The notes: generated by a model not told the origin, from the letters alone. 64,000 nt of DNA from Deltaproteobacteria bacterium (GCA_033763315.1 JANRKS010000027.1:49134-113133); one strand, 5' to 3'. Counted from the first letter of the stretch, positions 9,152 to 51,261 are shown. Made by a program: numbers and translations.

Positions 9152-10798
9152 CTATTGATCGCGGGGCGCCGCGCGGAAGCGGAACGCCTCGCTGGCCACG
9201 GTCTCGGCAAACAAGCCAAGCACATCGCCGTCGACAGCGGCGCGCGTCGCCGCAAGAGCGGCTACGTGGCATTCATCGGTCTCGCTTTGCTTGCGGCCTT
9301 GCAGGTACTCAAACACTTGACCCGCAAAGCAGGATCGTACGGCTTGTGACTCCGCCAGCTTCAAACCAAGCGCACGCGCGTTTGCCACCTCACCCGAAAG
9401 CGTGGGCAGATCAACTGTGGCCGATGTGGCAAACGGCTTCGACGTTTCGGGATCTTTGTCGCGCCACACGCCCAAGCGATCGTAAGCCGCGAAGGGTTGG
9501 CCCAGCGGATCCAGTATCTTGTGGCAAAAGGCACAATCGGGGCGGTTCACGTGCTGGGCCCGCGCCTCTTCCGTGGTGACGGAGCGGCCCACCATGGCCT
9601 CCAATGCCTTCTTCGTGGCATCCAGATCGGCAGAGACGTTGTTGGGTGGATCGGGCACCGGCGTGCACAGCAAGCGCTCACTTACAAAGCGACCGCGCGC
9701 ACTTTGGTTCGTGTGCCGGCCCATCACCAAACCCAAACTCAAAAGGCCCGCCGTGTCGGCATCGGCCTTCGGCGTGTACTTCATCCACATGCCCTCGGGC
9801 ACGCTCACATTTGCGTTTGTCAACTTCGCAAGGGGCGCGTTCAAGAACGTGTAGTTGGCCGAAAGCAAAGTGGAAAGTTTTCCGCCGTCTTGCCACAACA
9901 CTTGGTCTAGGAAGCGTCTGGCCTGCTCGGCATAATCGGCGTTGGCGGCGGGTTTGCCTTGGTCTACGAAGTCCTCGAAGAAGGCCTGCACACCCTGTGC
10001 GAGCGTTGCGCTTTTGAGAATGCGTTGTGCGGCCTTACGAACGTCCTCTGCAGACGCCAATTTGTTGTTGGCCGCGGCCTGCAGAAGCTCCGCGTCCGGC
10101 GGCCCATCGGTGAGCCCGTAAGAGAGTGCGGATGCAATTTCATATGAGGACAGCGCAAACGTAGCGCCACGTTTTTGGCCAATCTCAAGACGAAACAAGA
10201 CGTCGGGTGCCATCAAAAGTCGTTGCACAACGAACGTCAGCGCTTGCTGCGGGTTGGCTGCCTTGCTTACTGAATCGAAGAAGCCAAGGTAGATGTCACG
10301 CTCTTCCTTTGTGAAAGGCCGGCGCCAGGCGCGCAGGCCAAACCCGTCCAGCATCTCGCCCACGCAGCTTCTATTGATGCCTTTGCTCATGCAGGCGGCC
10401 AGGCGCTCGGGGTTCGCGATCGCCGCCGCCGCCGCGGCTTCTACGGCTCCCATCAGCGATTCAGTGACGCCTAAGTTGTTCGAGAGCACCTGCTCACCAT
10501 TCGAGAACGGCTGGGTGCGCGGCAGGTTCGTCTGCAGGTCTTGAATCAACTTCTTGTCGGGGGCCGCTGGCCCCAGCAGCGCCGCAAATGTGTTCTGTAG
10601 CTGCACCGGCGTCAGACGGTATATGCGCTGTGGAAGCACAGCACACGCCTGGCCATTGGCACCACCTGCCGAAGGCTGCTCGGGCACGCCGCCATTCGCC
10701 GTGTCACCAGCGATGGTGCCCGAACAGCCGGCAAGGCTGACAACAAGTGACAACATGCCCGCGGGGCCAACTACCAAACTGCCCATAGAAAGCCGCAT
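9152..10798 (-). CDS. DUF1587/1595/1592/1588/1585 lipoprotein with CxxCH
   Basis: Lipobox SLAG-C, RLTPVQLQNT, RAWRRP, YEIASALSY.L..GPPD, RG.FV.ERLLC, CAFCH; start ATG 10798 (or 10804). Confidence 0.85.
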   Translation of the reverse strand: MRLSMGSLVVGPAGMLSLVVSLAGCSGTIAGDTANGGVPEQPSAGGANGQACAVLPQRIYRLTPVQLQNTFAALLGPAAPDKKLIQDLQTNLPRTQPFSNGEQVLSNNLGVTESLMGAVEAAAAAAIANPERLAACMSKGINRSCVGEMLDGFGLRAWRRPFTKEERDIYLGFFDSVSKAANPQQALTFVVQRLLMAPDVLFRLEIGQKRGATFALSSYEIASALSYGLTDGPPDAELLQAAANNKLASAEDVRKAAQRILKSATLAQGVQAFFEDFVDQGKPAANADYAEQARRFLDQVLWQDGGKLSTLLSANYTFLNAPLAKLTNANVSVPEGMWMKYTPKADADTAGLLSLGLVMGRHTNQSARGRFVSERLLCTPVPDPPNNVSADLDATKKALEAMVGRSVTTEEARAQHVNRPDCAFCHKILDPLGQPFAAYDRLGVWRDKDPETSKPFATSATVDLPTLSGEVANARALGLKLAESQAVRSCFAGQVFEYLQGRKQSETDECHVAALAATRAAVDGDVLGLFAETVASEAFRFRAAPRDQ

Positions 10799-45227: not shown

Positions 45228-47755
<2,528 letters not shown>

Positions 47756-47759
<4 letters not shown>

Positions 47760-48493
47760 GGGTTCGCCGGGTTGCCGGGTTCGCGTTTCTTTAGCAACAC
47801 CTGCGATAAACGCTGGCGTTCGCGCCGCAAAGCCGGATCTCCAAACGTCCGCCTCGCTTCTTCATCCACTTCAGTGCGGCTCATGCGTAAGGCCTGCCGC
47901 CAACGCCACCGTTGCCACAAAAGATCGACCCCGGCGAGCAGACAAAGCGCCCCGCACACACTCAGCAGCAGATGCGCTGTGAGGCCGCCGGCTTGTCCAA
48001 GAAATGTGGCTGAGCCGGGCCGTGCCATGCGCATGAGTGCACCTCGCTGCGCCCACACAACAACGGCGCCTATGGCCAACGTGGCCACCATGACAATCAC
48101 CGGGGCTGCACGGCCCGCCTTGTGACGGGGTTCACGCACGCCCGGCAACTGCAACCGCCCTCGTGACTGCAACAACGCCAGCAAAGACGGCAACGCCCAC
48201 GCGGCCAGGACCACGGGGCCCAACAGCATCAGCAAGAGCGGCAAACTTTCGCGCAAAACCGACGAAACGCGCAGGTCGAAAGCGCCCACTGCGAACACGT
48301 GCCGCAAAGTCGAGCGCATCAGACCCACGAGCTTCACCACGGCCCAGCCGGCGCCGGCCATGCAAAGAAGCAGGCTTCCGCTTAACCCCACCACCGCACT
48401 CAACACGTGACTCGTCGGCACGTGCCCCGCGCGTATCGCGTCTGCCAAGCGGCGCGGCGACGCTGGTGTCGTTTTGTCAGCGGCCTCGCTCAT
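47756..48493 (-). CDS. flhB: FlhB/SctU-like export protein, C-terminally truncated (no NPTH/cytoplasmic domain)
   Basis: KT..ASPRRL..A...G.VP.S N-terminus, four hydrophobic segments, D..WQR....LRMS..EV..E....GDP, then stop. Confidence 0.8.
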
Positions 48494-49299
48494 GCGCCGC
48501 TGGCCCACAAAGACAGCGTGTGCAGCACCATGGAGGGAACGCGCGCCAAAGCACCTTCGAGCGCTGCCCGCACAAGGCCCAAGCTCAACAACACAGCCCC
48601 AAGACCAAGCAACGGCGATGATGCCCGCACAAGGTTGCTAAGGTCCACCCCGCCAGAGCCGGCCACCCGCGACGCCAACGCCACCACCACTTCACTTAGC
48701 CACACAGCAAGCAAAACAGGCGCGGCCATCGCGACGGCTGCCTCCAGCATGCCGCCCACGGCTTGCGCCACCACCGCCCACACAACCGGTTGGTTGGTGC
48801 CCTTTAAGCTTTGCTGCAGTGGCAACACCTCATACGTGCGCGCCAACGCTGAGATAAAGTGTGCTGGGCCCCCAAGAGCGCAAAACAGAACCACGGCCAA
48901 CAAGCCAAACAACACCGACAAAGGCGTGAGACCTTCGTTGGATGCGTCCAGGGGGTCCACAAGCGTGGGGCCATCCGCTCGGCGCCCCAGGTCCGCCACG
49001 TGCCCTGCCACCTCTGCGGCCTTGAACACAAGTGAAGCGAGCCAAGCCAGCACAAACCCGATCGCCACTTCTCGCACCAACAGCCACGGCCAATGCCCAT
49101 CGGTTCCACCCCAAAAGGCCGAAACCGGCAGCACGGCGCACAGCCAAGCGGCGAGCCCCCCGCCCATGCCCAATCGCAGAATCAACGGCAGCGAGGCGCC
49201 CCCAAAAAACGGCAACAGCACGACGGCCGGGGTCACGCGTGCGGCAATCAATACGAACACGCGGAAAGCTTCATCGAGCGATGTCGCAGCCAGCGTCAC
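48490..49299 (-). CDS. fliR: FliR/SctT export gate protein
   Basis: ARV....LPFFGG, REVAIG, AG...D, AL..TY..LP, AAPV; position after fliQ. Confidence 0.85.
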   Translation of the reverse strand: MTLAATSLDEAFRVFVLIAARVTPAVVLLPFFGGASLPLILRLGMGGGLAAWLCAVLPVSAFWGGTDGHWPWLLVREVAIGFVLAWLASLVFKAAEVAGHVADLGRRADGPTLVDPLDASNEGLTPLSVLFGLLAVVLFCALGGPAHFISALARTYEVLPLQQSLKGTNQPVVWAVVAQAVGGMLEAAVAMAAPVLLAVWLSEVVVALASRVAGSGGVDLSNLVRASSPLLGLGAVLLSLGLVRAALEGALARVPSMVLHTLSLWASGA

Positions 49300-49574
49300 C
49301 GCACACCCGCCATTAGCGAAAAAACAGACGTGGCAAAGCGCACCATCTGTGCGCCCAAATAGGGCCCCATGAGAACCAAACCGAGCAACAGGACCACCAA
49401 GCGAGGCACAAACCCCACCGCGTGATCATGGATCTGCGTGAGCGCTGAGAACGCACCCGACACCAAGCCCACCACGAACGTGGCCAGCAGCAAGGGCGCT
49501 GAGACCAACACCGCCAACAGCAGGCCTTCGCGCAACACCCGCAACACCAGATCAATGGACGAGGCGTTAAACAT
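49296..49574 (-). CDS. fliQ: FliQ/SctS export gate protein
   Basis: SAPLL....VGLV..F.ALTQI.D....FVPR. Confidence 0.88.
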   Translation of the reverse strand: MFNASSIDLVLRVLREGLLLAVLVSAPLLLATFVVGLVSGAFSALTQIHDHAVGFVPRLVVLLLGLVLMGPYLGAQMVRFATSVFSLMAGVR

Positions 49575-50283
49575 AGGACGACACCAAGCCACGCAAGATC
49601 AGGTTCCAACCATCCGCCAACACGAACAACAAGATCTTGAGCGGCAGCGCAATGACAGTGGGCGAAAGCGTTTGAAGGCCGAGCGCTGCCAGCAGGTTTG
49701 CGATCACGAGATCCAAAACCAGAAACGGGATGAAGATCAGAAACCCCATCTCGAAGGCACGCCGCAGTTCAGACACGACAAAGGCCGGCGCTAACACCAA
49801 CACATCATCCGCATGAACGGTGCCCTGCGGGTCACCTGACCGCAATCGCTTTGCCAGCGCAAAAAACGTGTCGCGGTCGCGGCCCTGCGCGAATTTGGCG
49901 AGAAATGCTCGCACCGGTGGCTTGCCCGCGGCCACGGCGTCTGAGATGACGCTAAGGCCAGCCGGCGTCGTCAACTCAGCCTGTGAACCTTGCCGCCACA
50001 CAGGCTCAACGGCGTTCATCACTGCCTCGGCCGTGGGCGCCATAATGAACACCGTCAACAATAACGCCAGGCCACTGATGACCTGCCCCGGCGGTACCTG
50101 GCCCGCGCCAAGCGCGCTTCGCAGGATCGCCATCACAACGGATACCTTTACGAAGCTTGTCAGCATCAGCGCAATGAAGGGCACCAGCGACAGCGCGGCC
50201 AGCACCATCACCACAGCCAAGGGCCGGCTGCCCGTTTCGCTCACCGCCGCGCCAAGGCCTGCCAAAACCGCGGGTGCCATCAC
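49567..50283 (-). CDS. fliP: FliP/SctR export gate protein
   Basis: TSFVKV.VV..ILR.ALG..QVPP, LT.FIMAP, PAF..SEL..AF..GF, LPLK.LLFVL.DGW. Confidence 0.92.
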   Translation of the reverse strand: MMAPAVLAGLGAAVSETGSRPLAVVMVLAALSLVPFIALMLTSFVKVSVVMAILRSALGAGQVPPGQVISGLALLLTVFIMAPTAEAVMNAVEPVWRQGSQAELTTPAGLSVISDAVAAGKPPVRAFLAKFAQGRDRDTFFALAKRLRSGDPQGTVHADDVLVLAPAFVVSELRRAFEMGFLIFIPFLVLDLVIANLLAALGLQTLSPTVIALPLKILLFVLADGWNLILRGLVSSYV

Positions 50284-50630
50284 TTAACCTTCCCCACAAG
50301 CCGTTGCCACAACGGCCCCGCGACCGCCGGCGCCGCTTCCGCCGCGACCTTGGCCATTGTGTCTGCGTCCACCTCAGCGATGAGCGCCACGCCCGCTTCA
50401 GACGAGGCCAGCAGAAACCCCCGCCCCGCCACGTCAACCACCAGCAAACTGCGCCGCGGCTCAAGTGGCGTGCGCGCCACAACCCGCAACGCGCCCCTGG
50501 CTGCCCCAGCGGTCCGCGCGCTAATCAATCGAAGGGCTACATAAGCCACAACGCACACCACCCCCAAGGAGAGAAATGAAACCGCCAACGAGCCTCCCGT
50601 GGTCCCTAGGTCTGCCGCCGCATCCGTCAT
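50280..50630 (-). CDS. fliO: FliO-like protein
   Basis: One N-terminal TM, then LRVVARTPL.PRRSL.VV.V.GR..LL..S..GV.LI. Confidence 0.8.
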   Translation of the reverse strand: MTDAAADLGTTGGSLAVSFLSLGVVCVVAYVALRLISARTAGAARGALRVVARTPLEPRRSLLVVDVAGRGFLLASSEAGVALIAEVDADTMAKVAAEAAPAVAGPLWQRLVGKVK

Positions 50631-50708
50631 GCCGCGATTATTCGCGCGGCCCCACAAACGAAGTCAACGGGCAGCGTGCGCCGTGTGGCGATTCCCCTCC
50701 CCAGACGC

Positions 50709-50737
50709 AAAAAAGGCCCGAAGTTGCCTTCGAGCCT
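50709..50737 (-). terminator. Intrinsic terminator of alpha operon
   Basis: GGCTCGAAG-GCAA-CTTCGGGCC-TTTTTT. Confidence 0.85.
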
Positions 50738-50763
50738 CATCGCTGGTTCGCTTGGGAAGCGTG

Positions 50764-51261
50764 TTATTCCGCAGAAGCGGCCGTCTCGGCCTTCTTCTTA
50801 GAAGCCTTCGGCGCCTTGCCTTCGGCTTTTGGTTCCTTGGCGGCTGGAGCGTCGTCTGGCATCAGCTGCAGAATCGACATCGGGGCTGCATCACCTGGGC
50901 GCTGACCCACCTTCACAACGCGGGTGTAACCACCGCGGCGGGCTGCGTAGCGCGGGCCGATTTCATCGAACAACTTTTGCACAGCTTCGCGGCTCTTCAC
51001 AACCTTGCGAGCTTCGCGCATGGCATTGACCACGCGGGCTTGCTCTTCCGTTGTGCGCTTTTCCACCGATTTGCTGAGCACGTCGCTCAAACGACGAGCC
51101 AACGAGATGGTGCGTTCGGCAATTTGGGCCGTGGCGCGCGCCTTCACGTGCGTAGTCTTGATTTCCTCATTCGCAAACAAGGCCGCAACCAAGTTTGAGA
51201 ACAACGCCTTGCGGTGGGCTGGCGTGCGGGAAAGATGTACCCCTGCTTTACGATGTCGCAT
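50764..51261 (-). CDS. rplQ: 50S ribosomal protein L17
   Basis: MRHRK, R.GGYTR, R.GDAA.M. Confidence 0.97.
   Translation of the reverse strand: MRHRKAGVHLSRTPAHRKALFSNLVAALFANEEIKTTHVKARATAQIAERTISLARRLSDVLSKSVEKRTTEEQARVVNAMREARKVVKSREAVQKLFDEIGPRYAARRGGYTRVVKVGQRPGDAAPMSILQLMPDDAPAAKEPKAEGKAPKASKKKAETAASAE

Follow-up and report, generated by a model that had tools for sequence, protein, structure and literature searches.

A probable non-flagellar type III export gate with a shortened SctU between rplQ and priA, its partner genes scattered over the genome

A 64,000-nucleotide stretch of a Deltaproteobacteria bacterium genome (GCA_033763315.1, JANRKS010000027.1:49134-113133; hereafter “the window,” i.e., the whole stretch at its full length) carries five overlapping genes, fliO-sctR-sctS-sctT-sctU', between rplQ and priA. 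Very probably, their products form the membrane gate of a second type III secretion system (T3SS), one of the non-flagellar kind. The other core parts of this system (SctV, SctJ, SctN-SctL, and SctQ) are encoded singly at distant housekeeping sites, and the organism carries a separate, complete flagellar gene set besides. By its sequences, the system and its gate are non-flagellar and belong to the lineage of the needle-less “Myxo” T3SS (T3SS*) of Myxococcus, of which the system is placed as a Polyangia-side relative. The SctU of this gate ends before the cleavage motif of its family, and the best overall explanation, held with more confidence than doubt, is a needle-less, scattered T3SS that would act here as a single-mode, switch-less exporter.

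Each of the five gate open reading frames (ORFs) passes its Pfam cut-off (Table 1), and the finer models separate flagellar from secretion-type subunits to different degrees. Specifically, SctR reaches 235.5 bits with the SctR model (NF009438) vs. 179.7 bits with fliP (TIGR01103), and SctT reaches 98 bits with the SctT model (TIGR01401) vs. 81.9 bits with fliR, whereas SctS scores higher on the fliQ model (71.7 bits) than on the SctS model (46 bits). The fliO-like product matches PF04347 at 40.2 bits (E 3.6e-10) and TIGR03500 at 55.0 bits, against a cut-off of 55.25. ORFs were called by a codon-usage caller trained on long ORFs, since a filter on GC content at third codon positions failed to separate real from spurious ORFs at 61% GC; gene names assigned by eye were checked with Pfam or NCBIfam where used.

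Whole-genome family searches, sorted by NCBIfam scores, resolve two type III gene sets, set A being flagellar and set B Sct-type. The eight core components of set B (SctN, J, Q, R, S, T, U, and V) are all present, spread over five contigs (C27, which holds the window, and C33, C34, C36, and C17), and each piece has housekeeping genes around it: sctV has an M16 peptidase gene on one side and hisD-…-rplU-rpmA-obg on the other, and sctJ adjoins holB and a PSP1-domain gene. FliP, FlhA, and FlhB-family loci number exactly two each in the whole genome, and the window gate is therefore the sole available partner of the second SctV. The same searches gave no match to FHIPEP, YscJ_FliF, fliI_yscN, or FliMN_C inside the window (C27:49134-113133); for these families, the statement of the initial annotation that no partner lies within 64 kilobases (kb) holds. 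Its description of the gate as an “orphan,” however, has to be given up, because SctV, SctJ, SctN with SctL, and SctQ are encoded elsewhere and are matched to the gate by phylogeny and by co-occurrence in relatives. The alternative that it had also raised, a displaced piece of a split T3SS, is borne out by the second SctV (C33), SctJ (C34), SctN with SctL (C36), and SctQ (C17), although not as a single complementary cluster lacking just these genes: the partners are scattered singly, which the annotation had not foreseen.

The flagellar set of this myxobacterium-like (Polyangia-like) genome occupies two clusters and a site with two flagellin genes (Table 1), with the flagellar gate copies and flhA at C27:19653-25719. 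The C27 cluster lies on the same contig as the gate, ending ~21 kb before the window start and ~69 kb from the gate itself. A flagellar-type FlhA or FliF copy is also present in most relatives searched; cultured myxobacteria are regarded as non-flagellated.

Phylogenies of SctV/FlhA (42 rows) and SctR/FliP (99 rows), built as quick searches, unrooted, without chlamydial sequences, and with support from the Shimodaira–Hasegawa-like approximate likelihood ratio test (SH-aLRT), place both sets. In the SctV tree, SH-aLRT 100 backs the division between 18 flagellar rows and the remaining 24; 11 of the 12 set-B rows are sister to six Myxococcaceae/Archangium clusters (SH-aLRT 91), and five canonical injectisomes (Ysc, Desulfovibrio-type, Rhc, Mxi, and Hrc1) form a clade of their own (99). 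In the SctR tree, a 19-row clade (91) includes all 18 rows with the rplQ-priA context and sits within a 34-row Myxococcota non-flagellar group (90), which also holds the Myxococcaceae/Archangium clusters, Labilithrix/Polyangiaceae, and one Bradymonadales row (L089); 51 flagellar rows, this genome's own FliP among them, group apart in a clade of their own (98). Among named records, the nearest come from metagenome-assembled genomes (MAGs) of Polyangia and Myxococcota, which fits an earlier guess that the organism belongs to Myxococcota. Outside this phylum, four loci of Acidobacteriota MAGs (L081, L087, L088, and L090) carry a non-flagellar-type sctR with a FliO-like gene directly upstream and form their own SctR clade (98); FliO-bearing Myxo-like systems may reach beyond Myxococcota.

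Table 1. Gate genes and their neighbours (positions counted from the first letter of the window), set-B partner genes, and flagellar loci (contig coordinates); aa, amino acids.
Feature	Position	Strand	Description and matches
fliO-like	50280-50657	minus	125 aa from TTG 50657, 116 aa from ATG 50630; single-pass membrane, FliO domain
sctR (FliP family)	49567-50283	minus	pore-forming export-gate subunit; PF00813 206.9 bits
sctS (FliQ family)	49296-49592	minus	PF01313 66.6 bits
sctT (FliR family)	48490-49299	minus	PF01311 105.7 bits
sctU' (FlhB family)	47756-48493 (ATG) or 47756-48508 (GTG)	minus	PF01312 103.4 bits, profile positions 2-243/335 only
rplQ	50764-51261	minus	ribosomal protein L17, end of rpsD-rpoA-rplQ block; PF01196 100.5 bits; upstream neighbour
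priA	45228-47759	minus	replication-restart helicase; TIGR00595 605.5 bits; downstream neighbour, GTG start overlapping sctU' stop
Terminator-like hairpin	50713-50738	minus	just 3' of rplQ, before fliO; 11-pair stem then TTTTGCGTCT; putative, consensus match only
SctV	C33:36576-38651		hrcV 666 bits vs. FlhA 583
SctJ	C34:97652-98377		241 aa, short lipoprotein type; 127.5 bits vs. fliF 29.8
SctN	C36:28419-29759		597 bits vs. FliI 581
SctL/FliH	C36:29756-30334		SctL-family model 73.9 bits vs. FliH 97.9 (flagellar model higher)
SctQ	C17:70683-71828		94 bits vs. fliN 42
Flagellar locus	C27:16908-27665		fliL, fliM, fliN, 390-aa FliO-domain ORF, fliP, fliQ, fliR, full-length flhB, flhA; flhF, flhG, fliA by eye only
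Flagellar locus	C22:94996-109524		motB, motA, flgE, flgD, weak FliK-like ORF, fliI, fliG, fliF, fliE, flgC, flgB; fliH by eye only
Two flagellin genes	C23:95916-97305

What the shortened SctU (SctU') keeps of its family's architecture is the N-terminal motif, the four membrane helices, the linker helix, and, in reduced length, the loop between the two hairpins. In the structural account of FlhB/SctU, these four helices wrap the gate and the loop contacts each SctS (Kuhlen et al., 2020; PMC7064499), while the C-terminal domain is described as docking early substrates and as having to be removed for late export (PMC7064499; PMC12403147). SctU' has no such autocleaving domain: no PF01312 match extends beyond position 243/335, as the truncated “flhB'” of the initial annotation had implied, and the protein stops before the NPxH column. 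In all three genomes of the window's genus (G000, G001, and G002), SctU ends just past the linker helix (…RRERQRL…) and before NPxH; phmmer paired SctU' residue 239 with residue 252 of an FlhB of 383 residues, which leaves 11 residues. A separately encoded FlhB/SctU C-domain was sought by whole-genome tblastn with the C-domains of 11 relatives and by Pfam, which found flagellar flhB only, and the ~1-kb gap between sctU' and priA in G001 holds no C-domain remnant. Read-through of sctU' into priA was ruled out, as the PriA 3'BD domain begins at residue 20 and the same end recurs in three genomes and three database proteins.

In most relatives, the sctU beside priA is full length (346–386 aa in cleanly called ORFs) and has its C-terminal domain, with NPTH, NPEH, or NPDH as the cleavage motif; the motif is degenerate in G017 (L052, DGDR) and G008 (L054, DPGR). 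Judged from these sequences, the family seems to be losing the switch stepwise, through motif variants and then degenerate motifs, and the window's genus would be the stage at which it is lost altogether. Relatives of SctU' itself are few: in a database of 5.8 billion proteins, which includes a 245-aa gene call for sctU', only five others were found at E <= 1e-5. Three of them are 244–245 aa long, and of these P0002 (61% identical) and P0003 (54%) share the tail …EVLLKK…, P0005 being more distant.

The AlphaFold model of SctU' (predicted local distance difference test, pLDDT, 76.1; loop residues 116–125 below 50) has long helices at residues 29–66, 75–109, 129–155, and 161–201. Superposed on FlhB of the Vibrio FliPQR-FlhB complex (6s3l_K), it gives a VIA Z of 10.3 and a root-mean-square deviation of 3.2 Å over 174/193 residues, the next match having a Z of 6.5. 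A Foldseek search of the PDB returned 6s3l_K at E 3.1 (TM 0.54/0.66), with no E-value reaching 0.001. The predicted structure keeps the membrane fold of FlhB. In SctS, the conserved cytoplasmic loop is still in place; compared for co-variation with the shortened SctU loop, SctS shows only modest changes specific to the genus.

The context of the gate is shared well beyond the genus. Among 20 relatives' loci fetched around the best SctU' match, the full order rpoA-rplQ-fliO-sctR-sctS-sctT-sctU-priA occurs in 10 (nine from the window's family and one from another family of the class). Three others are partly consistent: G032 is without a detectable SctU match only, G019 has fliO-…-priA but no rplQ, and the G008 locus runs into the end of its contig. 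The remaining seven are other arrangements or flagellar copies. A fliO orthologue stands upstream of sctR in 12/20, and five of 80 named loci share the context in whole or part (MAGs named Polyangia, twice, Myxococcota, Haliangiales, and “Myxococcales”). The partner genes are as dispersed in relatives with large contigs, where the set-B SctV and SctJ genes lie on other contigs or >1 Mb away (G001, G011, G017, G024, and G027); the distance is 1.09 Mb between sctJ and the gate, on one contig, in G011 and 1.3 Mb between sctJ and sctV in G024. In 6/14 loci, sctV is flanked by the rplU/rpmA/obg/hisD block, by the M16 peptidase gene, or by both. Counting matches from either set, at the search thresholds used, SctU' is found in 37, SctV in 39, and SctJ in 40 of 41 genomes, with G028 lacking all three.

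Within the window, adjacent gate genes overlap by GTGA at fliO/sctR and sctS/sctT, by ATGA at sctT/sctU', and by 8 or 26 nucleotides, depending on start choice, at sctR/sctS; the last junction, sctU'/priA, is again GTGA. Coordinates, Pfam matches, and junctions agree with the earlier report of five overlapping ORFs at this place, whose upper end, 50630, is an in-frame ATG with a TTG start further out, and the GTGA coupling into priA that it reported was likewise read. Of the terminator that it set between rplQ and fliO, the hairpin with its T-run is present, but as a consensus match only, and such terminator-type consensus sites number 19 in the 7.6 kb scanned vs. 11.0 ± 3.4 in shuffles. Upstream of rplQ, rpoA and rpsD are confirmed. 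Placed behind this ribosomal-protein/rpoA block, the gate and priA probably share a constitutive expression. The priA start lies within ~100 nucleotides of the sctU stop, or overlaps it, in 8/14 relatives' loci.

Four further observations concern these loci. In G001 (L048, C3, ~9300–10270), the ~1-kb gap between sctU' and priA contains an ORF that is sugar-nucleotidyltransferase-like by eye, and tight sctU'-priA coupling is therefore not universal in the genus. In G029 (L053, C501), from another family of the class, a 551-aa frame next to priA ends in the SctU linker and C-domain, and no separate sctR, sctS, or sctT match occurs in the 8.8 kb upstream; the frame may represent fused or rearranged gate genes. 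Directly upstream of sctL-sctN in the present genome, in the position of fliG/sctK, is a 294-aa gene (C36:30405-31289; locus L069:4406-5290, minus) with no Pfam or NCBIfam match. Its best language-model look-alikes are uncharacterized clusters commonest in Chlamydiota/Planctomycetota (0.91–0.94), resemblance to FliG- and SctK-like clusters being weaker (0.80–0.85), and it may be a sorting-platform adaptor. Lastly, AT skew on the plus strand is 0.385 at window positions 48001–50000, far above the remaining window, which we attribute to minus-strand membrane-protein genes with T-rich hydrophobic codons.

Family searches of the genome did not find several parts of a canonical injectisome. The best match to the type III secretin SctC (TIGR02516) reaches 134.4 bits, below its cut-off of 238.45, and falls in an open frame of 1409 aa that has no Sct gene near it; the needle SctF (PF09392) has no match in the genome at E <= 0.1; SctD gives only generic matches to the first 60–135 profile positions, all under cut-off; the gatekeeper SctW was not found; and a FliK/SctP-like ruler has no match outside the flagellar cluster and one weak match (20.6 bits) inside it.

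Published work describes FliO as helping FliP/SctR to assemble and SctR5S4T1 as a helical gate (PMC7064499; PMC12403147). By this model, FliO would aid assembly of SctR5-SctS4-SctT1 in the inner membrane, the four helices of SctU' would be added outside the SctRST helix bundle, and SctV, the SctJ ring, and the SctQ/L/N platform would complete a basal body without needle or secretin; proteins would therefore be moved only across the inner membrane, or handed to another envelope machine. With no needle, rod, or ruler there would be no early substrates and hence nothing to measure or to switch, so that the switch could be dispensed with, and for this reason we read the machine as a single-mode, switch-less exporter. 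That such a switch-less mechanism is also active seems possible to us, if slightly on the doubtful side. A stricter version, in which SctU' is a bare structural subunit of a gate that still exports, while the switch and much of the loop merely set the sequence of needle or hook assembly and translocation can do without them, we regard as rather unlikely.

Several points weigh against a single-mode exporter of the Myxo lineage. The genome is 90.85% complete, such that each absence above means “not found,” and profile searches could miss small, fast-evolving needle, rod, or tip proteins. The loop between helices 2 and 3 is 11–17 residues shorter in the short form than in full-length orthologues, and it is without the KLNP..G.K..FS-type motif shared by those orthologues, the Myxo clusters, YscU, Spa40, and the organism's own FlhB; by canonical rules SctU' could be export-dead. 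Flagellar FlhB without its C-domain is reported to assemble poorly and to have needed overexpression (mBio, PMC13344023). SctU' proteins are only 35–39% identical within the genus, and a ratio of nonsynonymous to synonymous substitution rates (dN/dS) of up to 0.72 in one pair fits relaxed constraint, though all such ratios (Nei-Gojobori, within the genus) are rough because dS, at 0.7–2.3, is saturated. Concerning lineage, the sister relation to the Myxo clusters has moderate support (SH-aLRT 90–91, from quick searches), the branches leading to the genus are long (0.52 for its SctV stem), and two SctV rows on long branches, set-B row G036 and one MAG row, are unplaced, with G036 outside the set-B clade.

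Some of these features also speak for the most serious rival, a relic in slow decay: the T3SS would be functional family-wide, export would have been lost in this genus, and the genes would be kept by weak constraint, by priA polarity, or by a non-secretory membrane role. We consider this unlikely. SctU' is without its C-domain and without part of a loop described as essential (PMC7064499), the stems of the genus are long in both the SctV and SctR trees, and dN/dS is highest for sctU' (0.39–0.72). Signs of erosion occur elsewhere in the family as well: besides the degenerate motifs in G017 and G008, sctU of G006 (L051, C160) has an in-frame TGA and the set-B sctV of G011 (L169, C2) is split over several frames, either of which may be a pseudogene or an assembly indel. 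However, the five ORFs are intact with overlapping junctions in G000; G001 and G002 also have them intact, although synonymous divergence is saturated, and each of the three members of the genus has an intact SctV and SctJ. Constraint is good on SctR (dN/dS 0.14–0.16) and SctS (0.21–0.36), whose loop persists, with sctT at 0.26–0.40 and fliO at 0.24–0.46; priA and rpoA stand at 0.08–0.13 and 0.03–0.05. The three database proteins keep the same length, two of them with the conserved tail, from which we infer that the short SctU form is itself maintained. Since dN/dS is below 1 for all five genes and synteny is conserved, the “decaying remnant” considered by the initial annotation (dN/dS near 1, no synteny) does not describe this locus.

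A stand-alone minimal gate or pore, i.e., a FliO-SctRST-SctU' conduit working without SctV, ATPase, or rings, had been the other proposal at the outset, and the lack of a partner gene within 64 kb and the shape of the unit, bounded by a hairpin (a putative terminator) and coupled to priA, would suit it. Yet SctV, SctJ, SctN/L, and SctQ of the same phylogenetic type exist in this genome and co-occur with the gate in relatives, and no stand-alone SctRST function is known; this proposal is very unlikely. Least probable is a spare or alternative gate serving the flagellar basal body, for which one could cite the presence of FliO, the preference of SctS for the fliQ model, and the flagellar cluster on the same contig, since that cluster has its own fliO-domain gene, fliP, fliQ, fliR, full-length flhB, and flhA, SctR and SctV fall outside the flagellar clades (SH-aLRT 98 and 100), the neighbours are rplQ and priA, and FliO also occurs in the non-flagellar T3SS of Myxococcota described in PMC12403147.

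The preferred reading, a scattered, needle-less T3SS gate, joins elements that are individually known: the five families, the needle-less Myxo-type T3SS, FliO in non-flagellar systems of Myxococcota (already published; PMC12403147), and the scattered T3SS of Chlamydiales. Under the definition of Abby and Rocha (2012; PMC3459982), a non-flagellar T3SS has core genes and a secretin and no flagellum-specific genes, and their analysis places the needle-less “Myxo” system, which corresponds to the T3SS* of M. xanthus (PMC12075869; PMC10849154) and occurs in other Cystobacterineae as well, at the base of non-flagellar systems. T3SS* is the nearest lineage in both the SctV and SctR trees and shares with the present system the SctR/S/T/U/V, SctN, SctJ, and SctQ core, FliO, the lack of a detected secretin or needle, and its occurrence in Myxococcota. 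It differs in that the Myxococcus genes are described as lying in single “short” or “long” loci (mxan_2434-2464), whereas the modules here occupy separate housekeeping sites; in that SctU of Myxococcaceae/Archangium is full length, with NPEH or NPDH; and in that no flagella are reported for its hosts, in contrast to the flagellar gene set present here. The role in prey lysis has, in the published account, been shown for M. xanthus only (Herrou et al., 2025; PMC12075869). Our literature search brought up no scattered T3SS in Polyangia and no rplQ-gate-priA synteny, although loci of this kind may be among those in Dataset S2 of PMC12403147 or in the supplementary figures of PMC3459982; nor did it bring up a Myxo-type system dispersed gene-by-gene in conserved housekeeping sites, its coexistence with a flagellar set in Polyangia-like genomes, or a natural, maintained SctU without C-domain and with a shortened loop.

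The dispersal itself recalls Chlamydiales, whose T3SS has a secretin and a needle and injects into eukaryotic cells. Core genes are spread over several loci in both cases, and the gene upstream of sctL has its Chlamydiota/Planctomycetota look-alikes (as a lead only); here, however, the scattering is more extreme, mostly of single genes, and the lineage is Myxo-type. In Chlamydiales (and also Hamiltonella), Abby and Rocha linked scattering over several loci to constitutive expression (PMC3459982).

For the shortened SctU, the closest comparison is with laboratory alleles of Salmonella flhB, in which a stop at 258 or a deletion of 270–383 is reported to block early (hook) export, and loss of the C-domain together with loss of Flk to give constitutive late secretion (PMC13344023). 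SctU' ends at about the same place as these alleles and, like them, is without the early-substrate docking site and the switch. The alleles were nevertheless engineered or selected in a flagellum, assemble poorly, and by that report need Flk loss for late secretion, whereas the short form of SctU' is natural, is conserved in several lineages, belongs to a needle-less system, and has a shortened loop as well. With the flagellar gate (FliO/FliPQR-FlhB; PDB 6s3l), the window gate has in common the five families, their gene order, and an SctU' model that superposes on FlhB; it differs in being phylogenetically non-flagellar, in having no adjacent flagellar genes, and in its missing FlhB_C and shortened FlhB_L. 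The Bacillus “CORE” nanotube platform, another case of export-apparatus proteins in a non-motility function, reportedly uses the flagellar proteins themselves, including FlhA, whereas the set here is a dedicated second, non-flagellar one.

In the most recent work, the needle-less myxobacterial T3SS* is connected with a Tad-like (Kil) pilus in predation. With the present locus, the Myxo lineage takes in Polyangia-like bacteria that, as judged from the gene set, have a flagellum as well, and the embedding of its parts (rplQ-gate-priA, hisD-sctV, and holB-sctJ) suggests that it is used constitutively, in the manner of housekeeping genes. That SctU has lost its C-domain and part of its loop in this genus alone amounts to a natural experiment on the specificity switch, which was genetically dissected only in 2026. 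Should the system prove inactive, it shows in what sequence a T3SS comes apart; if it is active, it defines a minimal SctU for translocation, and a switch-less yet exporting gate, if true, would be nature's counterpart of the laboratory flhB C-domain deletions.

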